From an uncultured Clostridium sp. (GTDB taxonomy: Bacteria; Bacillota; Clostridia; TANB77; CAG-508), in NCBI GenBank assembly GCA_947650745.1, contig CANSWM010000002.1, positions 503 through 64,502 on the forward strand: a stretch of 64,000 nt of DNA, written 5' to 3'. The notes under the pieces were generated by a model that was not told the DNA's origin, searched no databases, and worked only from the letters and a program-made list of their open reading frames with translations. Shown here in pieces: positions 2,526-25,284 of the stretch. The translations under genes were made by a program, and so were the position numbers. The number at the start of each line of letters is the position of its first letter. The stretch's first letter is position 1.

Positions 2526-3872
2526 TTATATTAAAGTTTTAATCGTTTCTACGATTCCTTTAATATATCCTTCTTTTTCATTTAGTAGTTTTTCTAAGTC
2601 TTTATCATTGTTTATATATCCGTAGTTCAATTAAATATGCCTCTACTCCAATGTTTGAATTATAGTACATATTTTTTCCCATCTTTGTATTTCTTCCATC
2701 TACATATGCTCCTGTTGCAATACCTCCAGTTTCTCTTAGCATATAAAGGTATGGTGTTTCTTTAGTTATTTTATATGGTGTATATCCTAATTCTTCAGCC
2801 TCTTTTCTTGATTCTTCTATTTCATTTTCTTTAAATGTTCTAGCATATACTCCTTCTTCTTTCTTATATACTGCTTCTAAGGTTGAATATTTTGTATTTG
2901 CATACTTTGCAATATTGCTTGCAAATGTTTTTGCTGTGTTTAAATTTGTTTTTGCTGGTACATATATTTCTACTCCATATTGTGAGTTTACTTCTTCTAT
3001 ACTATTTAGATGAATTGAAAATACATATTTAGCTTTTGATTTTCCGTACAATATTTACTCTTCCATTTTCGTCATATACATTTTGTACTCCAAACTTTTC
3101 TTTATCTTCTGTTCCATCTCTTGTAATTTTAACTTTTAGTCCTAAATCTTCTAGTTCTCTTTTTAATATTTTACTATACTCTAATGTTAAGTTTGCTTCT
3201 TCATAGCCTTTGTATTTTGCTCCTACATCTGAGCCTCCATGCCCTGGGTCTATTACAACATCATATACATCCTTTGGAAGATGTGCAATTTTAGATTCTA
3301 TAAGCATATAGTTTATGTTTTTTTCTTCTGTTTTATAGTTATTAAATTTTATTTCTATTTTATTATTTGAATTGTTTTTTGTTATTGTATAATATGTTAT
3401 TTCACCATATTCTGTGGTATTTTTAATTGTGTAATACTTATATTCTTTCTTGCCATAGGCTACTTCAATTAACATATAATATTTGTTTGCTGAAATTTTT
3501 TCTAAGTCTATTCCGCTCGTTTATTAAATCTGATGTATAGAATTCTAAACTTCCATCAGTTTTTTTATACTCTAAATCTATTTTTTCTTCTGTTTCATCT
3601 AATTTTTTCAAAATTAGTTTAACACTTTTTATATTTGGAATCTCTTCTTTTATTTCTCCTTCTACATTTAAATGTGTTCCATATACCATGTATTTTGTTA
3701 GCTCTGCATATGAATTTTCTACTTTTGCAAAGATTTTTGCCATTTCTGTTTTATTCGCTTCTTCGTAAAAATACATTTCATATATAGCTGCAGCACCTAA
3801 TAGTATTATTAATACTATTACAAATAAGATTATCAGTATCCCTCCATGGTTTTGTTCTAAGCCTTTTTTCAT
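2526..3872 (-). pseudogene. membrane-anchored N-acetylmuramoyl-L-alanine amidase (Amidase_3 family), interrupted by three +1 frameshifts (near 2613, 3043, 3513)
   Basis: ORFs 3465-3872, 3029-3475, 2605-3051 plus a 2526-2612 tail join into one protein. N-terminal TM helix, VVIDPGHGGSDVGA motif, Amidase_3 C-domain. Each junction is an in-frame CGG before a Gly codon. Confidence 0.7.
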
Positions 3873-6128
3873 TCTTCCTCCATAACTTCATATTCATATA
3901 CACAAATTATTTTTGTTTTTATTTCTATTTCGTTTATTTCTTGGTTTATTCTAAATAACTTTTGTTTTTTAGGTTCTAACTTAAGTTTGCTCATATCTAC
4001 TAATATTTTATCTGAGACATTCATTCCGAAGTGGTAATGTTTTATTATTGTTTTCATAATATGCAATATTAGTTAGAGGTATTGCTTTTGTATTTTCATT
4101 TAATTTTATATTATATAAATTTATTTTAGTAGCCTCTTTCAATGTAGAATCTAGTGCATTTTGCGGATTAATGTATAGAATATTATATGTTCCAGTATTT
4201 ATTACATTTTCACTTGCATAGAATAGATTTATTTTAGTTCCTATTTTGCTTTTATCAATAGCATTTTCTAGACTCTGTATTGCATCTTTTAAGATTTCAA
4301 TATATTGATTATTTTTTGTAGTTTTATTTATATCTAAAATTCTAAACTTACTTTTTTTAATTTCTCTATGTTTATTGTTTCCTAATGTATTTATTTTTGT
4401 TTTGTCTTCTGTCATTCCTCCAAATATATCAAAGTCTTCTGATGAAAACAATATTTCTTCTTGCAATGCTTCTTTTTTTATTTCTTCAATATGCTTTTTA
4501 AAGTCACTTTTTGCCTCTGTTCTTAAATCATTTATATCTTCTAAAATATCTGTACTCGATAAATATAGGCTATCACATTCTTCTTTTAAAAATTTCTCTC
4601 TATTTTCTTTATCAAATTTTTTTCCTAATTCTTCTATATCTTGTTCATAATCAAATGTTTTTTCTATATTTCTTTGCACTTTTTCTTCTATTTTTTCTGG
4701 TTCATTTAGTCCGAAGCATATTGTCTTTATTTACAAACTTCCAAAATTCAAAGATGCTTTTTTTGTGTTCTTCTATTTCTTCTATATAGCTTTTTGCATT
4801 TTCTATCTTTTTTGCTAGTCTTTCTAATGTACCCTCTAATGCTTTTATATCTAATGTTGTATTTCTTATCTGGCTTTGCGTTCTTTCTAATACTTTTGTT
4901 ACATCAACTAAATCTTCTATTGTATAGTATTCTTTGTCATCATATATTAGATTTTCTTTATCTTCTTCGTTTTCATACCTTTTCTTTGGAAGTATAATTT
5001 CTTCTTTTTCTTTCATCTTTTTGTTTCCTCTAAAGAAGTATCTTATTCTACCAAAAAAACTTTTTTTGCATGCTAAATATGTAGTTACTTGTTTTTGTCT
5101 TATCTGATATTCATCTTGTTTTTCTTGTTCTTCTCTTCTTAAAATTTCTAATTTATCACAAAGTACAAATAGTTCTTCTTTTTCTTTTTCACATTGTAAT
5201 TTGTTTTTTAGAAATTCTTCTCTTATAAATTTAGGTAAGTTTTCATAGTCTATTACTTTTACTCCTGAATCTGATGTATATATATATTCTAGTCCTCCGA
5301 TTTTCTGCAATTCGAACTTCAAAGTTATATCTATTTGGAAATTCCATGTTTAATATAAATAATGCTTTTATTAGTTTATAAAATCTTACTGCTTCTTCCT
5401 CATTATTTAATACTATTTTATATATACTGTTTACCTTTTCATATACGTTAGTATCTCCGAACTATTTGAAAACTCATATTTTCTTGTTTGTCATATACTT
5501 CATATACAAGAGGCCAGTTTTTTGTAAATTGCCATAGATATTTTTCTATGTCTTCTACTTGTGATTTTGTGAAATATCTTTTTGAATAGTCTAAATGACT
5601 TATTGGAACAAATATCATTTTGTCTATACCAGTTTTTTCATATTGTATTTGTTCTTTTATCAGATAAAAAAGGCAAGAGCAGTCTAAATCTTCTATTGGA
5701 GCTATCATATAATAGTTTTTTGAATATTCCGAATAATATATTTGCCATAAATAATTTTCTTCATATTTAACTTTAAATGGTATATTCTCATTTAATTTCT
5801 TTTGCTCTTCTTCTATTTCTTTAATCTCATCTATTTTCATATCTTGTATCATTTTTAGAAATATTGTGTGTTTTAGTATGCCTTCTTCTCCTTCTGGTAA
5901 AAGATATGTGTATAGAGGGGATGCCATTTTGCTTTTTTCTTGCAAGCTATTTAGTCTATTTGCTTTTGTTAGTAATATTTTTATTTTGCTTATTGGTACA
6001 TATTTATATACTTTATACTTTTTTTCTTCATAGCTTCTTGCTGATGTAATTTCTGTATCTGTTGTTCCTATTAGTATCTTTGGTATATTGTTTAAATCTA
6101 AATTTAAATATTTTAATTTTTCTTCCAT
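3869..6128 (-). pseudogene. large (~750 aa) hypothetical E/K-rich coiled-coil protein, split by four +1 frameshifts (near 4022, 4712, 5300, 5455)
   Basis: ORFs 5448-6128, the 5330-5450 linker, 4702-5322, 4008-4679 and 3869-4066 read as one stop-free frame after deleting one C at each CGG site. Confidence 0.5.
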
Positions 6129-12124: not shown

Positions 12125-12862
12125 CTAGTATTTTACTTCTACTAAATACAGTCCATGTGCTGGAAGTGTTTTTCCTGCTCTTTGTCTATCCATGGAATTT
12201 ATTATTTCTGGTATGTCATCTTCTTTTATTTTCCCGAATTCCTACTTCTACAAGAGTTCCTGAAATTATTCTAACCATATTATATAAAAAACCATTTCCT
12301 GTAAGCTCTATTATTATTCTATCCCCTCTTTTTTCTACTTCTGCTTTATATATTGTTCTTACGCTGCTTTTACTGCTTGTTCCACTTGCTTTGAATCCTT
12401 TAAAATCATGTGTTCCTTCAAAATGCTTTGCAGCTTTTTTCATTTTATCAATATCTAAAGCTTGTGGAATGTGATATTCTAGAGCTCTTAAGAGGCTGCT
12501 TCCCTCTTCTGAATTGTTTATTATATATCTATATGTTTTTTCTTTACAATTATATCTTGCATGAAAATTTTCTTCTACTTCTTCTACTTTTTTTATTAGT
12601 ATAGAATTTTTTAAATTTGCATTTAATGCTTTTTTTAGAGTTTCTGCTTCTAGTTTACTTTCTGTTTTAAAATTTGCAACTTGTCCGAAGACTGTGTACG
12701 CCTGCATCTGTTCTTCCGAGATGCATTTAGTTCTACATCTTCTTTTGTGATTTGTTTAATTGCTTTTTCTATTTCTCCTTGAATGTTTAGTTTATTTGGC
12801 TGTTTTTGCCAACCACCAAACTGAGTTCCATCATATTCAATTGTTAATTTTATGTTTCTCAT
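12125..12862 (-). pseudogene. truA: tRNA pseudouridine(38-40) synthase TruA, interrupted by three +1 frameshifts (near 12233, 12705, 12727)
   Basis: N-terminus MRNIKLTIEYDGTQFGGWQKQ. Deleting the extra C's restores ...NASGRTDAGVHSLGQVANF... and the C-terminus ...PAHGLYLVEVKY. Every site is an in-frame CGG preceding a conserved Gly. Confidence 0.8.
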
Positions 12863-13530: not shown

Positions 13531-13761
13531 ATGATATATGTACGAGTAAATGAAATTTTAAAAGAAAAAAAGAAAACGAAGTATTGGTTTATTAAAAATA
13601 TGGAAGGAGGCTACCAATCATTATCTCATTTAATGGATAACATTACTACTGGAATAAAATTTGAAACACTAGAAAAAATGTGCATAATTTTAGATTGTGA
13701 ACCTGGAGATATTATTGTTAGAAAAAAATCCATTAGAAAGAAGGTTAATAAAAATGAGTAA
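13531..13761 (+). CDS. small XRE/YozG-like helix-turn-helix transcriptional regulator
   Basis: 76-aa ORF with RBS ggtgaggtgag; ...LSHLMDNITTGIKFETLEKMCIILDCEPGDII resembles the short HTH_26-type regulators. Confidence 0.5.
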   Translation: MIYVRVNEILKEKKKTKYWFIKNMEGGYQSLSHLMDNITTGIKFETLEKMCIILDCEPGDIIVRKKSIRKKVNKNE

Positions 13762-14137
13762 ACTTCTAAAGCAATATGAGGAACTAAAGAAAAAAGATCC
13801 TAAAAAAATATATATTTTTAAAGTTGGTATTTTTTATAATATATTAAACGAAGATGCAAGACTAGTTTCAAAAGAAATCGGCCTAAAACTAACTGACTTA
13901 AGTCCTGAAATAATTAAATGTGGTTTTCCTGTCGCTACACTTGAAAAATACACAAATCTATTAACAGAACATAAGATAAAATTTGAAGTTGTATCTAATC
14001 AAACATCTTCTAATCAACATACTTCTTATGAGCAAATTATTAATAAAATACGAAACATTAATTTAGATAATACAACTTGCAAAGAAGCATTTGATATATT
14101 ATATACTATACAACAAAATTTGAAAAATATACAATAA
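13756..14137 (+). CDS. stand-alone MutS domain I (mismatch-binding N-terminal domain)-like protein
   Basis: MSKLLKQYEELKKKDPKKIYIFKVGIFYNILNEDARLVSKEIGLKLTDL...KIKFEVVSNQ aligns with the MutS N-terminus (TPMMQQY..K...PD.ILFFR.GDFYE.F.EDA...S..L.ITLT...KVAI.EQ). Confidence 0.5.
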
Positions 14138-14161: not shown

Positions 14162-15136
14162 TTATTGAACATCTGATTTATATACCCAAGACATAATTTC
14201 TTGTAATAGTACACCATCAGGATGTGTGTTTCCACTTCCTACTTGCATTATCGTATAAGTCTTTCCTTTTATATATGAAGGAATTGTTTGTCCTGTGCAA
14301 TATTTAGAAGCAGATGTTTTTAATGTGACTTTTTGGCCTTTTGAGAAACTTATTGATGCTGCAGGTGTAACAGTATTTGTTGATCCTACTTTTTGTGTAT
14401 AATCTAAACAGATCCATCCAGCACCTGATTTTAATTTACCCCAATTTCCTTGCGTTTCAACTATTGTATATGTTCCTTTATCTCTAATGCAACCTACTAT
14501 TGAATTATTTGTTCCTGCACCACTTCTAATATTTAAAGCATCTGTTGTTACTTTTACTAAATATGAATTACTTGTATTTTGTGTTGTTTGTGTTGTTTGT
14601 GTTGGTGCTGCAGGTGTTGTATTTCCATCTAGTTTTGCATTAACTTCTTTTACTAATTGTGGGAATCTATCTTGTAAGTATTTTCCTGGACAACTTGTGC
14701 TTGCGAACATATTATGTCTTGTTAAACTTCCGTTTTTTGTACCATCATATGTAAGTCTAAAATTATATCTTTTACATATATCTACACATAAATTCACAAG
14801 TGAGTTCCAAGCTGCAGCAGATACTGGCCACTCTCCACCTGTAGAACTATTAGAAACTTCAATTGTAATTGCTTGACAGTCATTTTCACTATTACTTGAT
14901 GTCCAAGCCCTGTTTTCTTCTCCAACATAACAGCCTATTCTTCCATCGTTGCCAATACCATAATTTGAACTTGCTTGTCTGCCTGCTGCTTGGAATATTC
15001 TACCACATTGTTCTGCAGATAAAACACCTGCCATATGGTGTATTGTTATTTTGCAAACTTTATGTCCTTTTCTTCCTTGTGTATAATTACCTAAATTTGC
15101 CTCTACTACTACATTTGTTAATCCTGATTTAATCAT
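14162..15136 (-). CDS. phage endolysin: N-acetylmuramoyl-L-alanine amidase (Amidase_2/PGRP) + TTQ-repeat linker + two SH3b-like cell-wall-binding domains
   Basis: KITIHHMAG...zinc ligands; linker TTPAAPTQTTQTTQNT; C-terminal SH3-like repeats; AGGAGG RBS; last gene of lysis cassette. Confidence 0.85.
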   Translation of the reverse strand: MIKSGLTNVVVEANLGNYTQGRKGHKVCKITIHHMAGVLSAEQCGRIFQAAGRQASSNYGIGNDGRIGCYVGEENRAWTSSNSENDCQAITIEVSNSSTGGEWPVSAAAWNSLVNLCVDICKRYNFRLTYDGTKNGSLTRHNMFASTSCPGKYLQDRFPQLVKEVNAKLDGNTTPAAPTQTTQTTQNTSNSYLVKVTTDALNIRSGAGTNNSIVGCIRDKGTYTIVETQGNWGKLKSGAGWICLDYTQKVGSTNTVTPAASISFSKGQKVTLKTSASKYCTGQTIPSYIKGKTYTIMQVGSGNTHPDGVLLQEIMSWVYKSDVQ

Positions 15137-15302
15137 TTTCGTTTTCCTCCTTTCCGTTTGTTAGTTCTTGTTTCATTTCTTCAGTTAATTCGATTTCTTC
15201 TTCCATAAAAAATCGCTCCTTTCTTTATAAAATTAAAAACAGGAAGATTTTTAATTTTTCTTCCTGTTTTATATAAATATCAGAATTTTTTTCTGATATT
15301 GA

Positions 15303-15346
15303 AAAAAAAACGGCTTGCGAGGTTGCGTTTTAAGCCGTTTTTTATT
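15303..15346 (-). terminator. rho-independent terminator (aaacggctt...aagccgttt + T9 on minus strand) after holin
   Basis: 9-bp stem, long T-tract on minus strand. Confidence 0.6.
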
Positions 15347-15554
15347 CTTGGGTGGTATCATTTATTGTCTTACTTTCGTTCTTTTTAGTGAAATAATATG
15401 TAAATGCTGATGATGTTATGGAACTAAAAAGAGTAAATACTATTTGAAATATATCCCAATTTCCTTGTATGGCCATTATTATTATAAGTGCTACTAATGT
15501 CAAAGTAACTGTGACCGTAACAAAACTTTTTAAATCATTCCACGCTTGTTTCAT
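15342..15554 (-). CDS. phage holin (70 aa, two TM helices)
   Basis: Small membrane protein immediately upstream of endolysin. Confidence 0.6.
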   Translation of the reverse strand: MKQAWNDLKSFVTVTVTLTLVALIIIMAIQGNWDIFQIVFTLFSSITSSAFTYYFTKKNESKTINDTTQE

Positions 15555-15566
15555 AAAGACTCCTTT

Positions 15567-15812
15567 CTAGTGTACTCCCATTCCACTTTTTAATAAAGCA
15601 ATTCCTATTCCAATTACTCCAGTAATAACTGCTGCTGCAACTGTTCTAGTAATCCACTTTAATCTTTCGTTTATTTCGTTAATTTCTTTTTCATTTTCTT
15701 TAGATAAATTGTATGCTTCATCAGACTTATCTTTTACTGACTTATAATCATCAAGTTTTGTTTCAATTTTAGTTAATCTTGTTAATACTTCAGTTTCAAA
15801 ACCTTGTTCCAT
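15567..15812 (-). CDS. XhlA-like haemolysin/holin-associated protein
   Basis: 81 aa, N-terminal coiled-coil plus C-terminal TM helix (AAAVITGVIGIGIALL), position before holin as in PBSX-type cassettes. Confidence 0.6.
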   Translation of the reverse strand: MEQGFETEVLTRLTKIETKLDDYKSVKDKSDEAYNLSKENEKEINEINERLKWITRTVAAAVITGVIGIGIALLKSGMGVH

Positions 15813-15868
15813 AGTTAAAGACTCCTTTCTTTGTATTTTAGTCCAAAAAAATAACGCCTATTAAGCGT

Positions 15869-16003
15869 TTATTTGTAATCCTCTCCAGTTATTTCTTTGT
15901 ACTCTTCTTTTGTTATCCATTTTCCAACAGCATTATAGGTTCTTGCTTTGTTCCATATTCCATTATCATAATAATTTTTTACTTTTTCAAAATTTTTACT
16001 CAT
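15869..16003 (-). CDS. XkdX-family small phage protein (44 aa)
   Basis: MSKNFEKVKNYYDNGIWNKARTYNAVGKWITKEEYKEITGEDYK; RBS GGAGG embedded in the stop region of the upstream ORF; below ORF-track length cutoff. Confidence 0.5.
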   Translation of the reverse strand: MSKNFEKVKNYYDNGIWNKARTYNAVGKWITKEEYKEITGEDYK

Positions 16004-16005
16004 AA

Positions 16006-16338
16006 TTAAGCCTCCTCTAAATCAATATCTGCCATCATTGCTAAATACTCTATATCACCTTGCATTTTTCTTTCTTTTAATTCTGCTTTAGATAATTCTC
16101 TTAATACAAAATAGTAACCATCTTCATAATGAACTATTTGTACTAATTCCATATGTTCATATTCTTGTTTTATTTCTTGACCATCTTCTGATCCTTCTAT
16201 TATAACTTTGGATAATTTTCCTTTGAAATCATCTTCAGTAAGTTTTGCCTCTGATACATAGTTGTTTCCATTTAGTCTAAGGTTTTTAATTTGTGTTCCA
16301 TCAGATAGCGTAATTTTCCATACCCTTGATTTTTCCAT
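16006..16338 (-). CDS. hypothetical phage protein (XkdW-like position), start overlaps the 3' end of the RT gene by 67 nt
   Basis: 110-aa ORF with strong AAGGAGG RBS 8 nt upstream of ATG at 16338. Confidence 0.45.
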   Translation of the reverse strand: MEKSRVWKITLSDGTQIKNLRLNGNNYVSEAKLTEDDFKGKLSKVIIEGSEDGQEIKQEYEHMELVQIVHYEDGYYFVLRELSKAELKERKMQGDIEYLAMMADIDLEEA

Positions 16339-17402
16339 CTTGGTACCTCCTTAAATAAATCATAATATAATTGAGACATATTTTCTATTTGCTTCATTGA
16401 CATATTTTTATAATTCGCTGTCATCCAACTTTTAAATATATTCTCAATTTCTTCATATTTTAGTCTATTATTATTTAGTAATCTTTTATAAGCCTTTAGT
16501 TTTCTTCGTTCTCTAGTAATTGCTTTGGGATGTATTTTTCTAACTACTCGGCCTGTTTCTGTCAATTTATATTGCAATTGTAAAACTCTAAATGGTTGAG
16601 ACAATTTGCATAGATGTGTTTTTTTAGGATTAATTATTAATCCTAGATTATCTGCAATTTCTTTTATTTCTTTTAATAATTGTTTTAAAAAATCTTTGTC
16701 TTTATGAATTATATACATATCATCTGTATATCTTCCATAATATTTAATACCTTTTACAACTTTAATATAATTGTCAATTTTGGTTGGATAAGAAATACCA
16801 ATATTTTGTGATGGTTGGCTTCCTATATCCACTCCTCTTCCATTTTTATTGTCTATATTAAATATATCAAATAGATTTTTTAAAATCCATAATGTAATTC
16901 GTGCTTCTCCTGGATCTACATCTTTTAAAAATGATTGCATAGTTTCTAAACATAAATTATGAGGAATACTTGCATAATATCCACTAAAATCTATTAATAG
17001 TACATAGCCATCATTATTTTTATACTTTCTATAATATTGATGTAAATGTACTTCTAATCTTTTTCTGTGAAATGCTACTCCTTTATTTTTTTGACTTGCT
17101 CCATTATCATATATTAAATAAGGAGAAATAGCTGGACTTAAAATTTCATCGCAAAGTAAATGATTTATTGTTTTATCAATCATTCCATTTGTTGTTATAT
17201 TTCTTATTTTGCCTCTTTCTTTTATTACAAACTTTTTTCCTTTTGTTGGTTTGTATTTCCATTCTTTTAAATCTTTTACAAGTATTGCTGTTTCTAATAA
17301 TTGATTCATTTCAAAGAGTTGTGTTTGATATTTAAAAGGTGCACTTTTTATTGCTTTTGTTCCTGCTTCATATATTTTATTAGCATCATAAAAAATATTC
17401 AT
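16272..17402 (-). CDS. diversity-generating retroelement reverse transcriptase
   Basis: RT fingers/palm with YTDD and DGR-specific IGSQPSQ (IGxxxSQ) motif; 376 aa; sits directly 3' of the TR. Confidence 0.9.
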   Translation of the reverse strand: MNIFYDANKIYEAGTKAIKSAPFKYQTQLFEMNQLLETAILVKDLKEWKYKPTKGKKFVIKERGKIRNITTNGMIDKTINHLLCDEILSPAISPYLIYDNGASQKNKGVAFHRKRLEVHLHQYYRKYKNNDGYVLLIDFSGYYASIPHNLCLETMQSFLKDVDPGEARITLWILKNLFDIFNIDNKNGRGVDIGSQPSQNIGISYPTKIDNYIKVVKGIKYYGRYTDDMYIIHKDKDFLKQLLKEIKEIADNLGLIINPKKTHLCKLSQPFRVLQLQYKLTETGRVVRKIHPKAITRERRKLKAYKRLLNNNRLKYEEIENIFKSWMTANYKNMSMKQIENMSQLYYDLFKEVPRWKNQGYGKLRYLMEHKLKTLD

Positions 17403-17549
17403 AAAAAATCACTTTAATAGTATTACTGGACTTATCCAAATACATAATGATTAGTATTTATCAATTTTTACTAATTGAAGGGATAATCTTTCCTTTCCTT
17501 TCCCATTACCATACTGTGGAAACTTAGTCCATAAAATTTTGTATGGGTG

Positions 17550-17645
17550 TGAAATCAGGACGCACACCGTTAGCGTTCGAAGCGTTGTTATTGTTCGCAT
17601 TACCGTTGTTGTTCACATTAGCGAAGTTCGAAGAAGAAACCACAT
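17550..17645 (-). other. DGR template repeat (TR)
   Basis: Non-coding GC-rich segment ~96% identical to 18319-18414. All 17 mismatches are at TR T on the plus strand, i.e. A on the minus coding strand. Encodes 12 AAY (Asn) codons in the target frame. Confidence 0.9.
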
Positions 17646-17663
17646 ATAAAGATTACCCACTAA

Positions 17664-18176
17664 TTATTTTTTTATATTTTTTAAAAACCTATTGTCGGTT
17701 TGTCGGAGTGATTTTATCATATTAAATTCTTTTTGAATTTCTAATACTAAATTTATATATTTATTAAGATCTGCATATAAGCATTCTCCTGCATATTGTA
17801 ATTCATCTTGTAAAGCATTACAACACGCCATTGCTCTATCCATTTCCAATCTTCGTTCTTCAAATTCTGACATATATGTTGGAAATATTGTATTTGCAAT
17901 TCTTAAATGCCTACTTATTCCTGTTGCAAGTTCTATAACATTATCTGTTAATCTATTGATTTGACTTCGATAAAATTTATACATATTGTCTTTGACTCTT
18001 TTTTGTTCTTCTTCAGGTAATTCTTTTATTCTATTATTTATTTTATCTTCTATTTTAGAAAATGTTATATAAAAATTGTTTTCTGCTAAATTTGTTACTG
18101 CTTGTCTTATCATATACGCATTATGAATTGTTTGTAATTTTGATTCACTTCTTTCACTCTTTTTTATATCCGACAT
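17664..18176 (-). CDS. accessory variability determinant (Avd)-like protein (candidate)
   Basis: 170-aa helical basic protein located between the target gene and TR, the canonical avd position. Longer than typical Avd (~110-130 aa); no direct motif evidence. Confidence 0.45.
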   Translation of the reverse strand: MSDIKKSERSESKLQTIHNAYMIRQAVTNLAENNFYITFSKIEDKINNRIKELPEEEQKRVKDNMYKFYRSQINRLTDNVIELATGISRHLRIANTIFPTYMSEFEERRLEMDRAMACCNALQDELQYAGECLYADLNKYINLVLEIQKEFNMIKSLRQTDNRFLKNIKK

Positions 18177-18276
18177 AACCTAATAATACTATTTCTCCTT
18201 TACTTAATTATTCGCAAAAGATTGTATCACTTTTTTTTCATCAATTTAACTCTACTAAACAATCACTATATTATAA

Positions 18277-18297
18277 GACAGGGCATAAAGCCCTGTC
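18277..18297. promoter_or_regulatory. GC-rich hairpin (gacagggc-ataaa-gccctgtc) ~20 nt downstream of VR/target stop; candidate DGR homing-enhancing stem-loop
   Basis: 8-bp perfect stem, 5-nt loop, directly 3' of the target gene. A comparable element is required for efficient homing in the Bordetella phage DGR. Confidence 0.5.
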
Positions 18298-18307
18298 AGA
18301 TGTCTGA

Positions 18308-19561
18308 TTAGTAGATTAGGAAAGCAGGACGCACACCGGCAGCGATCGAAGCGTTGGTAGCGGCCGCAGCACCGCCGTTGGCCACACCAGCGAAGCTCGA
18401 AGAAGAAACCACATCCCTTAGCCAATACCAGTATCTTGCGTTGTTGTCATCTCTCGCTATTATTTTACTTGGATTTAATCTGAATAATGATAATTGTGAC
18501 TTATCAATTCCAGTTTCATATCCACTTGAACCCCATACATCGTGGCCATAAACCATACTTTCATTCATAAGTTCTATTGTAGAATCATACCACGTCCATC
18601 CTGTTGATTTACCATCTGCAACTGCATTTGTTAATAATTCTTTGTGACTTAAAATATGATTTGAAGTAAAGTCATTTTGAATTACAGTTTTAAATGGTGC
18701 TAAATAATTTGTGTACATTTTACTGCCAAAATAACCTCCAGTTGTAATATTGGTATCATTCATTTTTGCTGTTCCCATTATTCTTTCAGGAATCATTAAA
18801 ATATGTTGTTTTGTACATTCAGTATCTCCACAATATAACCTATAATTAATATCTGCAACTAAATATTTCTTTTTGCTTACCTTTCCTATAACATAGTCTC
18901 CTATAAATATATCATCAAAAGTTCCTGCAGCAATTTGCTTTGACAGAGTACCATCATAAAATAAATCTGTTATATCTTTTCCCCTATAAATTGAATTGTG
19001 TGCTCCTGCATTTGGTGCAACAACTATTGATTTTAAATTAGCAAATTTTGCATCATAATCATCTGTAAGTTCTTGTGCTTTTTCAATCAAATCTTCTTCA
19101 GTAACATATACTGTACTTGGATCAACAGTTATTGTTACATTGTTCGCATTATCAACTGTTATAATCATATCGTAATAATGCTCTTTTTTTTCTGATATTG
19201 AATTATTTATATATTCTGCTTCTTCTCCATAGTTTATATATGCAAATAATACTTCGTCGTTTGTATCAGGATCAATAGCATATAAACCTAATTCTCTTAA
19301 CCAGAATCCTTCTTCAGCATCAGTATTTTTAAATAACCCTCTAACAGTAACTTGTGTGTCTGTTTCCCTTGCTATTTTTGTAATAGCAAATTCCAATTTA
19401 GGAGAATTTAAATCTGTTAGAGCTTTTATTTCTTCTACACTTCCACTTTCTAGCGAACCATCTCCAATTTGAAACCTTGAAAAACTTAAGGTTTTTGATT
19501 GTAAAGTTTTTGCTGCTAAAATTGCTCCTTGTGTAGTTATGTATGTTATTCCATACGCCAT
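18308..19561 (-). CDS. DGR target protein: phage tail fibre / receptor-binding protein with C-terminal C-type-lectin/FGE-like fold bearing the VR
   Basis: 417 aa. Tail-fibre-like N-terminus and C-terminus ...WTWYDS...YGHDVWGSSGYE...ARYWYWLRDVVSSSSFAGVANGGAAAATNASIAAGVRPAFLIY. The last ~32 codons are the VR. Confidence 0.85.
   Translation of the reverse strand: MAYGITYITTQGAILAAKTLQSKTLSFSRFQIGDGSLESGSVEEIKALTDLNSPKLEFAITKIARETDTQVTVRGLFKNTDAEEGFWLRELGLYAIDPDTNDEVLFAYINYGEEAEYINNSISEKKEHYYDMIITVDNANNVTITVDPSTVYVTEEDLIEKAQELTDDYDAKFANLKSIVVAPNAGAHNSIYRGKDITDLFYDGTLSKQIAAGTFDDIFIGDYVIGKVSKKKYLVADINYRLYCGDTECTKQHILMIPERIMGTAKMNDTNITTGGYFGSKMYTNYLAPFKTVIQNDFTSNHILSHKELLTNAVADGKSTGWTWYDSTIELMNESMVYGHDVWGSSGYETGIDKSQLSLFRLNPSKIIARDDNNARYWYWLRDVVSSSSFAGVANGGAAAATNASIAAGVRPAFLIY
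18319..18414 (-). repeat. DGR variable repeat (VR) at 3' end of target gene
   Basis: See TR; adenine-specific substitution pattern. Confidence 0.9.
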
Positions 19562-21896: not shown

Positions 21897-22279
21897 CTCC
21901 TTGCTGGCCTTTTAGCCGTGAAGTTTACAGTCATATCTTTTCTATATGCTTTGCCATCTTTAAAATCGTAAATCACTCTTGAAACATTATTAAAATAGGC
22001 CTTAAATTCAAGATTAGCAATTTTGACAGTATGAAATTCCTCTGGTTCTGTTAGTTTATTCCATAATCTTTCATATTCATCATAATTACTATCAACTTGA
22101 GGTTCGAACTTAATGTCAGTAAAATTAAAGTACACACCTATTAGTTCTCTTTTTAGATCTCCGTCATCTGTTCTATTTGCATATTTATCTAAAAAGTCTG
22201 CTGCTTCTTTTATATTTGCATATACACCAATATTATATTGTTTTCCATCAAGTAATATAAAATCGTATTTTTCTGCCAT
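21893..22279 (-). CDS. hypothetical phage tail protein (Dit-position, 128 aa)
   Basis: Directly downstream of TMP. Confidence 0.35.
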   Translation of the reverse strand: MAEKYDFILLDGKQYNIGVYANIKEAADFLDKYANRTDDGDLKRELIGVYFNFTDIKFEPQVDSNYDEYERLWNKLTEPEEFHTVKIANLEFKAYFNNVSRVIYDFKDGKAYRKDMTVNFTAKRPARS

Positions 22280-25200
22280 TATGTTGCACCTCCTATAATT
22301 AATTTGTTACCTTTTCTCTTGCTTTCTCTATCTAATTCAGGTTTTAATACTCTTACTAATTGTGACATTGTACCATTAAAGTTAAGTATAATATTTTGTG
22401 CTTGAGTATTATTGCTTTGATTATTATTATTTTGATCTTGGAACATTTTTAAAGCTGTCAAAACCATATCTAACATTTTATCTTCAGGTGCAACAACTTC
22501 GCCTTGATGTTTATTATCACCAATAACTGCTAATTGAGGTGTATTTGCTTTTACATAACCACCTTGTGCAAGTCTTGGTAAATTCAATTGATTTAATTTT
22601 CCTATATTAACTCCTGGTATTGCATTAATTACATCAATAGCACCATTTATCATATTTACAAATTTGTTTACTATACCTTCTATCATTCCAAGAACGCCAT
22701 TTATTCCACTTTTTACTGCTCCACTTATTGCATCCCCTATTTTTGTACCTAATGCACTAAATGTATTTTTGATGTTGTTCCATATGCCACTAAAGAAACT
22801 TCCAATATTTCTAAATATACCTGTAATTCTGTCATAAGCAGTTTGAAAATTATTTATTATTCCGTTTTTAATACTACTTACTGCATTACTAATACTATTT
22901 TTAATTCCATTCCATATATTAGAAACTGTATTTTTTATTCCATTGAATATATTTGAAATAACAGTTTTTATTGCATTAAATACGGTTGTAATAATACCTT
23001 TTATAACATTTATTACTGTTTCTATTATCCCTTTAATTGCGTTCCATACAGCAGAAACAACACCCTTAATCGCATTCCAAATTCCTGTAAAAAATGTCTT
23101 TATACCTTCCCAGGCTTTGTTCCAATCTCCTGTGAAAATACCAACAATGAAATCTATTAAACCTTTAAAAGTTTGTATAATTCCATCAATTGTATCTGTA
23201 ATAGCACCAAATACATTGCAAATTGTGTTCCATAAACTTTCGAATATTGGAACTAATACAGGAAGAATATTTTGTATGATCCAATCAATAACTGGTTTTA
23301 AAATATTATTCCAAAGAGCCGTTACTGCATCTGCTATACTTCCAATTAAACCTGCGACATTATCTACAAAAGGTTTTAAATGTGTATTCCATAATTCATT
23401 GAATTTTGTTGCTAATCTCTCCAACATAGGTGCAACATAAGTGTTATACGCATCTAGGAATTTTCCAAATGTATCACTTATTCCTGTTTTTAAGGCTTCC
23501 ATTAGAGGATGAATATGTTGATCATAAACTTTATTCCATTTATCTCCAACATAAGTCATTGCAGATGCTAATGTACTTGTAAAGCTTTCTATTGGCTTCA
23601 TTGTATTTTCAATAGTAGTTTTTATTTTATCTGCATTATCTATAATTGGTTGGAATAATATTCCCTTTAAATCAAGCACAAACTTTCCACATAATTCTTG
23701 GATACTCATAAGTGGATTAGCAAATATTGCAATTATATTAGCACCGATTTGTTTTGCTGTATCACTTTTAAATACATCTGATATTTCTCCTAATGCTTGA
23801 AATAAATTACCTGTTAAAGTTAAATCTTTACTTGAAATATCAAACATTTTACATATATGGCCTTTTATTCTTTCGACATTTTGTGACAAGTATTTATCTA
23901 TACTTCCAACTAATCCTTCAGCAAGATTTATTCCTATTCTTGCTACAGAACCTGTGACCTGTCCAAGTGTAAATAACAAAGTTTTTACCCAATTTTCTGC
24001 TGCACTTAATACTTTTGGATCTGTCCAAATATTGATTATTGTATCTTTTATTCCTTTTAAATGTCCTATTATTCCATCAAAATTCGTGTCCCCAAAACTA
24101 ATGTCAAACCCACTTTTAAATATGCCTGCTAATTCTTTTAATCTCCCAATTAAACCATCAAATGCTGATGTATCTTCAGTAATTGTACTTGATACATCTA
24201 ATGAATCAGTTAGTCCTGCTCCTCCACCAGTGCTTCCACTTCCTGATCCACTTGAATTACTTGTATCTTTCTGTAATACATTTAAATTATCAAATGATGC
24301 CAAGTTGTTTGATGCCTTTTTTGCATCTTTTCCTGCTTTTTTTGCACTATCTCCAATACCTGAAATCGCATCAGATGCATCTCCTGCTTGCGTTGCTAAA
24401 TCACCTATTCCACTTGATACAGTTTCAACACTATCTGCTTTTAATCCAAACATTGCTAGTAAACCTGAAAGTGCTGTAAATAATTTAGTAACTACATTTA
24501 CTGCACTAGTTATTATTGGAATAAATAATTTTGCAATTGGCTGAATTGCATTTCCTACTGCAGTTTTCAAATTTGTAAATGCTGTGTTTAATTGTGCTAA
24601 TTTTCCTGAATATGTACTAGCATAAATCGCAGCATCATTACTTTGGAATTTTGTTTCTTCTAATATTCCATTTACTTCTGCTTGTATTTTTTCTGCTTGA
24701 GTAAGATTATTTGTTGTCTTGCCTATTGATTTTGCATAATCTTCCCACATTTTTGCCACATTCTTCGTAACACCTGCATTATCAACAACAACTGAATTTT
24801 CATTTTTTAAACCTTCTGTTGCTGTCTGTACTGCATCTCCAAGACTATATGTGCTTTGCCTTGCAAATGTAGCACTATTTTTTAAGGCATTCATTGTCTT
24901 TTGTATTTGATCTGAATTATAACCTCTTAATGTCAAGTTCTTGTATGCAGCAACTGCGTTATTCAAAGGAACTAAACCATCTGATATATAATCATTAATA
25001 AATTGTTTTGCTTTATCAAAACTCTTTCCTTGGCCAGTTAAGATTGAATTTAACCCTATCCAAGCATTAGAAGTTTCAGTTGCTACATTTAGACACTCTT
25101 TTCCCCATTTAACAACTGCTGCAACAGAAAAAGCTGCCAGTGCAGCCTTACCTATTTTTAATAATGATGATGAGATTTTAGAAGAAGCCGTATTTGCTTG

Positions 25201-25284
25201 TGCATCAATATTTTTTAATTGTGAACTAAATTTATTACTATCTAATATTAAACTAAGGTCAATTTCCCCTACATTTGTACTCAT
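22279..25284 (-). CDS. phage tail tape measure protein (1001 aa)
   Basis: Length; N-terminal coiled-coil; long run of IWNxIKNxVSxxWNxI... helical repeats; central G/S-rich linker; position after the chaperone pair. Confidence 0.85.
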   Translation of the reverse strand: MSTNVGEIDLSLILDSNKFSSQLKNIDAQANTASSKISSSLLKIGKAALAAFSVAAVVKWGKECLNVATETSNAWIGLNSILTGQGKSFDKAKQFINDYISDGLVPLNNAVAAYKNLTLRGYNSDQIQKTMNALKNSATFARQSTYSLGDAVQTATEGLKNENSVVVDNAGVTKNVAKMWEDYAKSIGKTTNNLTQAEKIQAEVNGILEETKFQSNDAAIYASTYSGKLAQLNTAFTNLKTAVGNAIQPIAKLFIPIITSAVNVVTKLFTALSGLLAMFGLKADSVETVSSGIGDLATQAGDASDAISGIGDSAKKAGKDAKKASNNLASFDNLNVLQKDTSNSSGSGSGSTGGGAGLTDSLDVSSTITEDTSAFDGLIGRLKELAGIFKSGFDISFGDTNFDGIIGHLKGIKDTIINIWTDPKVLSAAENWVKTLLFTLGQVTGSVARIGINLAEGLVGSIDKYLSQNVERIKGHICKMFDISSKDLTLTGNLFQALGEISDVFKSDTAKQIGANIIAIFANPLMSIQELCGKFVLDLKGILFQPIIDNADKIKTTIENTMKPIESFTSTLASAMTYVGDKWNKVYDQHIHPLMEALKTGISDTFGKFLDAYNTYVAPMLERLATKFNELWNTHLKPFVDNVAGLIGSIADAVTALWNNILKPVIDWIIQNILPVLVPIFESLWNTICNVFGAITDTIDGIIQTFKGLIDFIVGIFTGDWNKAWEGIKTFFTGIWNAIKGVVSAVWNAIKGIIETVINVIKGIITTVFNAIKTVISNIFNGIKNTVSNIWNGIKNSISNAVSSIKNGIINNFQTAYDRITGIFRNIGSFFSGIWNNIKNTFSALGTKIGDAISGAVKSGINGVLGMIEGIVNKFVNMINGAIDVINAIPGVNIGKLNQLNLPRLAQGGYVKANTPQLAVIGDNKHQGEVVAPEDKMLDMVLTALKMFQDQNNNNQSNNTQAQNIILNFNGTMSQLVRVLKPELDRESKRKGNKLIIGGAT

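Follow-up and report, generated by a model that had tools for sequence, protein, structure and literature searches.

A diversity-generating retroelement (DGR) is very probably present in complete form in a prophage of gut Clostridia that we analysed in a 64,000-nt stretch of the Clostridium sp. contig CANSWM010000002.1 (assembly GCA_947650745.1). This stretch is hereafter called the window, and positions are numbered from its first letter. The element has the architecture of the DGR of Bordetella phage BPP-1, with a target gene, an accessory gene, a template repeat (TR), a spacer and a reverse transcriptase (RT), and it belongs to an integrated prophage (~40 kb), where it is flanked by the tail-fibre gene and the lysis module. 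An earlier sequence-only reading had described a complete DGR which diversifies the C-terminus of the prophage tail fibre. The TR and the variable repeat (VR), the motifs of the RT, a VR end resembling an IMH (initiation of mutagenic homing) element, the hairpin behind it and the variation seen in the population all agree with that description.

Repeat pair, relatives and reverse transcriptase

Using a repeat search, we found a single long direct repeat in the window, which is ungapped, 95 nt long and 81% identical, with a spacing of 769 nt between the copies (Table 1). The sequence-only reading had aligned the two copies without gaps over 96 nt. In this frame the minus (coding) strand shows 19 mismatches, of which 19/19 are located at TR adenines and 0 at the 69 non-A positions. 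The last column of the frame (17550/18319) is already beyond the homology, so that the true repeat comprises 95 nt and 18 mismatches. All 18 are found among the 26 adenines of the TR, for which a random placement of 18 positions gives P = 1.4e-13. One of them, the A/C difference between GATTTC in the TR and GCTTTC in the VR, was identical in 53/53 related TR/VR pairs. Since random mutagenesis would not always yield a C, this site is a fixed marker of TR and VR outside the transferred segment, and 17 mutagenic differences therefore remain, which is the number given before. A realignment that showed differences elsewhere than at TR adenines had been named as a possible refutation; in our alignment they stay limited to these adenines.

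In the reading frame of the target, the TR adenines are confined to codon positions 1 and 2, and the TR contains 12 AAC/AAT codons. The translations of both repeats and the number of these codons agree exactly with the earlier ones. The window as a whole has 28.8% GC, whereas the TR has 44% and the VR 62%. A second VR was not found when both strands of the whole 64-kb window were scanned with adenine mismatches tolerated, so that the lone VR reported previously is still the only one.

Related elements were collected by scanning for the RT, which provided 28 loci from GTDB genomes and 31 viral contigs from IMG/VR (~35-40 kb) with 67-95% RT identity, as well as one distant locus; single loci are named here by an L number. 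Most of the genome loci belong to metagenome-assembled genomes (MAGs) that carry the label Clostridium or Clostridia and stem from the gut of mouse, human, deer and rabbit. We found the same layout with a TR/VR pair of 94-97 nt in 53 related loci, where 744/751 mismatches are at adenine positions. Over the related loci there are 35 distinct TRs and 53 distinct VRs, and one TR is paired with 8 different VRs. None of 50,697 deposited phage records matched the locus in a megablast comparison.

Two contigs from independent metagenomes, with an RT identical to that of the window, are of particular value. The first, L061 (7131 nt), comes from an independent ENA metagenome and has 17 differences to the window; 16 of them are in the VR, and these 16 are all at TR-adenine positions. 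The second, L062 (5449 nt), has 15 differences, and 15/15 are in the VR. Outside the VR there are thus 0-1 differences over 5.4-7.1 kb. These nearly identical contigs differ at the adenines of the VR, and the VR must therefore have been rewritten after the copies diverged. Hence, the DGR of the window is apparently still active, as judged from these sequence comparisons. Recent activity has been estimated for 50-75% of DGRs, and most of all for viral ones (PMC8144416).

Among the relatives there are also remnants and unusual variants. The MAG CANOVB01 (Clostridium) contains three loci of this DGR family (L001, L026 and L027), and L027 is a remnant with a frameshift that divides the RT and without the lysis genes, in which a MutS-like open reading frame (ORF) abuts the RT beside a host ABC-F gene. 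In L156 (4263-5315) and L157 (872-2004) the target was kept and the cassette of accessory gene, TR and RT was lost. A fossil VR remains in L157, which has the GC-rich end and lacks a hairpin, and the VR of L156 is shortened by a stop codon. L028 (595-6814) carries a distant DGR whose RT is 38% identical. Its target of 1347 aa has two tandem C-terminal domains with one VR each (3791-3859 and 4511-4579), which show 11 and 12 mismatches, all at adenines, to one 69-nt TR. A weak MutS-like tblastn match in this cassette was not significant and was rejected; the accessory gene there encodes a canonical bAvd of 114 aa.

The RT of the window was recognized by the Pfam model RVT_1 (2.3e-14), the sole Pfam model above threshold, and by PHROG 1423 (6.4e-52). 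Its best match in the PDB is the RT of BPP-1, bRT (8ub7_A, E 5e-5), and the only other match is a Cas6-RT-Cas1 fusion; group II intron or retron RTs were absent among the PDB matches at E <= 0.001. The pairwise alignment with bRT shows 21% identity over 317 aa. IGSQPSQ aligns with IGSLTSQ of bRT and YTDD with YMDD. Conserved as well are the residues that correspond to R74 and I181, the two of bRT which have been shown to promote adenine mutagenesis (PMC7826257). The signature of DGR RTs is [I/V/L]GxxxSQ, whereas group II intron and retroviral RTs have QGxxxSP (PMC7826257). We found that the DGR signature is retained in 57/59 related loci. The NCBIfam models for group II intron, Drt3a, retron, Drt5 and Drt4 RTs reached 20-56 bits, with cutoffs of 200-550. 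Both motifs named in the sequence-only reading are thus in place, and an RT that lacks the DGR motifs and groups with intron or retron RTs, its second possible refutation, is not what they suggest. The placement of the protein among the DGR RTs is indirect and follows from these motifs and scores.

Table 1. Position of the DGR components and of prophage landmarks in the window.
Feature	Position	Strand	Description
Target gene	18308..19561	-	417-aa tail-fibre protein; tail-collar fibre N-terminus, DUF6273 C-terminus ending in the VR
VR	18320..18414	-	95 nt; last 31 codons of the target; mutagenised positions span 18339-18396
IMH-like segment	18298..18337	-	GC-rich block, fixed C and ~26 nt including the stop codon; putative function
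GC-rich inverted repeat	18277..18297	-	GACAGGGC-TTTAT-GCCCTGTC; 8-bp stem, 5-nt loop; 22 nt past the VR
Promoter-like site	18270..18299	-	CTGACA, 18 nt, TATAAT; overlaps the hairpin; consensus match only
Accessory gene	17664..18176	-	170 aa, pI 8.7; in the avd slot
TR	17551..17645	-	non-coding; 26 adenines; begins 18 nt past the stop codon of the accessory gene
TR-RT spacer	17403..17550	-	148 nt; conserved structured RNA
DGR reverse transcriptase	16272..17402	-	376 aa; IGSQPSQ and YTDD
110-aa ORF	16006-16338	-	strong ribosome-binding site; 67-nt overlap with the 3' end of the RT; XkdW position; no Pfam match
Lysis genes	14162-16003		XkdX, XhlA, small putative holin, amidase
MutS_I (MutS domain I) ORF	13697-14137	+	adjoins a helix-turn-helix gene at the prophage end, just past the endolysin
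Host pseudouridine synthase gene	12216-12707		
Probable tape measure	22279-25284		1001-aa ORF; by size and position only; no supporting Pfam match
Integrase	52198-53463		prophage landmark

Spacer RNA and cis-acting DNA

The region between TR and RT is a structured RNA. When 34 distinct spacer sequences were analysed with RNAalifold, a model with 35 pairs was obtained, 12 of which show double compensatory changes. In this model 99.2% of the cells are paired, compared with 32-65% when the partners were slid, and the observed covariation score was reached by 0/500 shuffles. The helices are located at 17517-17531, 17480-17504, 17461-17478 and 17407-17452. A further, tentative helix between 17564-17568 and 17453-17457 would join the GC-rich end of the TR to the spacer and contains one covarying pair. 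A search for Rfam families in the spacer and the hairpin gave none, with two matches at chance level only. By analogy, the spacer is presumed to be the counterpart of the spacer (Sp) of the BPP-1 DGR RNA. The alignment of the 34 sequences provides a structure supported by covariation, which can be compared with the DGR RNA of BPP-1 in order to sort general from idiosyncratic features of priming.

TR and VR have a GC-rich block in common, GGTGTGCGTCCTG (18325-18337 in the VR), which is followed in the VR by the fixed C (18324) opposite the A of the TR. Thereafter the flanks diverge, and each is conserved inside the family. The ~26 nt past the fixed C are conserved among the relatives and are unlike the flank of the TR; the conservation of the VR flank continues beyond the stop codon (CTAATC..TAATC...ATC). 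The TR flank, GATTTCAC, is invariant across the alignment of the 34 distinct spacers. In BPP-1, it is IMH and IMH* that distinguish VR from TR (PMC5758913). By analogy, we regard the fixed A/C difference as the mark of the IMH/IMH* boundary, between the shared GC block and the flanks by which TR and VR can be told apart.

The 8-bp GC hairpin of the sequence-only reading is present at the position given there, and its distance to the repeat, estimated at ~20 nt, is 22 nt. It was found at the same distance after the VR in all related loci, and there is none after the TR. The stems of the relatives show compensatory changes (GACAGGGC/GCCCTGTC, GTCAGGGC/GCCCTGAC, CTCAGGGC/GCCCTGAG, GTCATGGC/GCCATGAC and GCTAGGG/CCCTAGC), where the last one is a wholly different stem that belongs to one subgroup. 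GC-rich inverted repeats downstream of the IMH, which are absent after the TR, occur in about one third of DGRs (PMC5758913). A plain terminator was rejected because of the missing T-tract and of the terminator scan, which made no call. Likewise, the hairpin is not a promoter element only: the L005 and L020 subgroups keep it without the TATAAT, and its conserved role therefore differs from that of a promoter. Most plausibly, the hairpin would serve target recognition, as it does in BPP-1 (PMC8632793).

The best sigma-70-like match of the region (11/12) coincides with this hairpin, the -35 box and the 18-nt spacer lying over it and the TATAAT just after. Most relatives, though not all, have kept the TATAAT. 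This site is possibly the promoter of the accessory-TR-RT transcript, as suggested by the consensus match. The same DNA segment (18270-18299) may thus combine the role of a homing signal with that of a promoter for accessory gene, TR and RT in the subgroup of the window.

Accessory protein, target and alternative explanations

The order target, avd, TR and RT, as it had been read from the sequence, is correct as far as the layout is concerned, but the identity of the second gene as avd is not supported by its sequence, and only the predicted fold of its product is Avd-like. The protein had no sequence match in Pfam, NCBIfam, PHROGs or PDB, and profiles of its family built from 27 and from 54 sequences found no PDB chain. 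An hhalign comparison of the family with BPP-1 Avd gave a probability of 0.1-0.2%. The Pfam model for bAvd (PF22296) missed the window protein as well as 53 aligned relatives (0/54), and it matched the positive controls, which were BPP-1 Avd (7e-36) and the 114-aa accessory protein of L028 (1e-10). The family is nevertheless large, with 511 clusters at 50% identity, and has conserved motifs of its own (AN-I-P, E-ERR and RQSDNRF). In L135, L139 and L141, genes for distant members (24-30% identical to the window protein) are placed immediately upstream of an RVT_1 gene, and L135, L138, L139 and L173 contain adenine-biased TR/VR pairs; the family is therefore linked to DGRs. On the short contig L137 (129-1103), 286 nt separate the gene of a distant member from a homologue of the 110-aa ORF behind it, and an RT is missing between them; this may be a further rearranged or decayed cassette.

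The AlphaFold model of the accessory protein (mean confidence, pLDDT, 82.5) is all-helical. Its predicted core (~residues 55-170) is a four-helix bundle which superposes on 2rld with 1.3 A over 107 residues and on Avd (4dwl) with 2.1 A over 106 residues, and it is preceded by a predicted N-terminal helical extension of ~45-55 residues. In Foldseek searches with this model, 2rld and 2gsc were the top matches in the PDB and entries named 'Avd-like protein' the top matches in BFVD; Avd-like proteins were the top structural matches in three libraries. We take 2rld and 2gsc to be members of the family in which Avd is classed. The best reading of the model is that of a very divergent or an analogous Avd-type bundle with an additional N-terminal helical segment. 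Homology to Avd is not established thereby, because four-helix bundles are common.

It is conceivable, although we consider it rather doubtful, that the protein represents a distinct and so far unannotated class of DGR accessory factors, which would go together with a DGR lineage of Firmicutes phages that bears the covarying spacer RNA. If such a factor did differ from Avd, for instance with an extension that binds the spacer RNA or alters the oligomer, many DGRs described as 'lacking avd' would carry an accessory factor. Since the family escapes the models for Avd, accessory genes of this lineage are probably missed in part when DGRs are annotated automatically.

The target is a tail-fibre protein, for which we obtained matches to Pfam Phage_tail_fib (PF12571; 1.7e-11, residues 6-155) and to a tail fibre PHROG (1.5e-41). 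A match to DUF6273 (PF19789; 2.7e-5) covers residues 353-416 and positions 104-170 of the 172 in the profile, and is marginal with 24.5 bits at a cutoff of 23.5. There are at least 7994 homologues of the target, most of them with precomputed PF12571 and PF19789. A profile search of the target against the PDB found nothing. The motifs quoted in the sequence-only reading, from which it had proposed a C-type-lectin or formylglycine-generating-enzyme look, are all found in the protein. The match to DUF6273 supports this proposal, with the VR at the C-terminal end of the domain, but the fold itself is unconfirmed. For DUF6273, which has been described as a target domain of DGRs, C-type-lectin-like models are published (PMC10743442, PMC11792537, bioRxiv 10.1101/2024.10.15.618418), and a C-type lectin fold of the variable domain in the window would rest on the marginal match and on these models. 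Switching of the host range by the variable tip may be expected by analogy.

From the biochemistry of BPP-1, the element could be expected to work as follows. Accessory gene, TR, spacer and RT would share one transcript, which possibly starts at the promoter-like site next to the VR hairpin. The RT, together with the Avd-like protein and the spacer RNA, would then copy the TR into cDNA with misincorporation only opposite adenines. This cDNA would replace the VR, entering at the GC-rich IMH-like end and aided by the hairpin, while the TR itself would be safe owing to its dissimilar 3' flank and the lack of a hairpin. The expected outcome can be seen in the sequences, where as many as 25 adenines, spread over 12 AAY codons, can be recoded without the creation of stops and 12 residues of the fibre tip vary. 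An altered binding to the receptor, giving a different host range or an escape from receptor variation, would be the benefit.

Some observations weigh against parts of this explanation. Our scan for TR/VR pairs penalised non-adenine mismatches, which slightly favours the adenine-only picture, although the alignments still extend over the full 94-97 nt. The activity of the element was deduced from differences between assemblies. For the target, the AlphaFold prediction of residues 170-417 (248 aa, 24 homologues with 73% mean identity) had a pLDDT of 37.9, and the hhalign comparison with Mtd was negative. The low pLDDT could also be used in favour of a different function of an active DGR, in which the variable tip binds another ligand such as mucus or other surfaces and no switching of the host range takes place. 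The published DUF6273 targets do include Hoc-like or immunoglobulin (Ig) domain 'tentaclin' proteins, which are proposed binders of host or intestinal surfaces. However, the target of the window has a tail-collar fibre N-terminus and strong matches to tail-fibre PHROGs, and the tail module ends with its gene, followed by the lysis genes. For a receptor-binding fibre such a position and architecture are typical, Mtd of BPP-1 being an example, and we consider another ligand unlikely.

It is less probable still, and in our view hardly to be expected, that the element is a genuine DGR in a fossil state, whose VR was diversified in former times and which no longer works in this prophage. Decayed relatives do occur, as seen for L027 with its frameshifted RT and for L156 and L157, which are devoid of accessory gene, TR and RT. 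However, in the window all parts are intact, including a full-length RT with its catalytic motifs, the accessory ORF, the TR, the IMH-like end and the hairpin, and the contigs L061 and L062 carry, with a 100% identical RT, VRs that differ at adenine positions only. The last alternative is that TR and VR resemble each other by ordinary duplication or gene conversion, and that the RT is derived from a group II intron, a retron or an Abi/DRT system. What could be said for it is that only the generic RVT_1 was above threshold, besides weak group II, Drt3a and retron matches below it. These scores are far from their cutoffs, however, and the motif is IGSQPSQ and not QGxxxSP. The best PDB match is bRT, with no intron or retron RT at the threshold given above, and no intron RNA, msr/msd or other Rfam match was found. 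Moreover, the adenine-only pattern (P ~1e-13) recurs in 53 loci. This alternative has practically no probability left and is effectively refuted already. An active DGR that diversifies the tip of the tail fibre is thus the explanation that we prefer.

Prophage surroundings and comparison with known systems

The 110-aa ORF behind the RT is conserved with 62-100% in all related loci. It was skipped by the gene calls on L061 and L062, probably because of its overlap with the RT. In L156 and L157, which have no DGR, it is found directly after the target gene, and in L173-176 between target and accessory gene. These positions show a linkage to the tail fibre and not to the RT, and we rejected the ORF as a component of the DGR. 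From this arrangement, the unit of accessory gene, TR and RT behaves as an insert between the fibre gene and the 110-aa ORF.

An accessory class of DGRs named 'MSL' (MutS-like), Architecture D, was reportedly described by Wu et al. in 2018. The MutS_I ORF of the window, which is similar to this class, is present in ~40 related loci and absent within 6 kb in the L020 subgroup. It was not counted as an MSL accessory gene, given that it is located at the same prophage end in phages without an RT (L105) and is missing in the L020 subgroup. Elsewhere in the prophage, ARAGORN called a tRNA-like gene of undetermined identity with a 4-base anticodon (acaa) at 36564-36641 on the minus strand, near a gene for a ParB-N6 DNA methylase (35277-36467).

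The DGR of BPP-1 (mtd-avd-TR-brt) shares with the element of the window the order of the genes, their strand and the VR at the 3' end of a tail-fibre gene. In both, the TR comes directly after the accessory gene and the spacer between TR and RT is of similar length, with 144 nt in BPP-1 and 148 nt in the window. A GC block closes the VR in either case, a GC-rich hairpin follows 25 nt on (27 nt in the window) and the hairpin is missing at the TR. The cassette is located near one end of the phage genome in both, and in the window the lysis genes come next. The RTs have the [I/V/L]GxxxSQ motif and the residues corresponding to R74 and I181 of bRT in common over the 317 aligned aa, although their identity is just 21%. 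Further differences concern the accessory proteins, since Avd has 128 aa and a pI of 9.6, whereas the window protein (170 aa, pI 8.7) shows no sequence similarity to it and has the extra N-terminal helical segment. The repeat has 134 nt in BPP-1 and 95 nt in the window, and the domains of Mtd are different from the Phage_tail_fib N-terminus and the DUF6273 C-terminus of our target. In BPP-1 the homology runs on through a partly matching IMH*, whereas in the window it ends 5 nt past the GC block. Finally, the host of the window prophage is an AT-rich Firmicute.

Compared with the bAvd-like family (PF22296) and the structures 2rld and 2gsc, the accessory protein shares the position in the cassette, the small size and basic character, and the predicted four-helix-bundle core. 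It differs from PF22296 in that neither a hidden Markov model match nor an hhalign match was obtained, and in being ~45-55 residues longer at its N-terminal side.

Closer in habitat and target are the DUF6273 DGRs of gut phages, i.e. those of the Faecalibacterium prophages Lelie, Roos and Pioen, of nd4 and nd12 with their tentaclins, and of Toutatisvirus (PMC11792537, PMC10743442, bioRxiv 10.1101/2024.10.15.618418). Like the element of the window, they are associated with gut Firmicutes, have the VR at the C-terminal end of DUF6273 and diversify a tail or receptor-binding protein. Several of them have two targets or fusions with Ig domains; in the window there is one target only, and its N-terminus is that of a tail-collar fibre. 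Avd is the annotation given to their accessory genes, whereas the Avd model does not recognize that of the window.

Overall, the uncharacterised element of the window is an ordinary member of a DGR class that is very common in gut phages; gut metagenomes contain its close relatives by the dozen and homologues of its target by the thousand. Phages of gut Firmicutes were already known to be rich in tail-fibre DGRs, most of which are active (PMC8144416). For the biology of DGRs our data are thus a confirmation and not a discovery, and the accessory family, which is cryptic at the sequence level, is the only mildly novel aspect. As a clean, compact and apparently active DGR, with many natural variants that include pairs differing in the VR only, the element may give a good model of phage tropism if the lysogen, a member of the anaerobic gut Clostridia, can be cultured.

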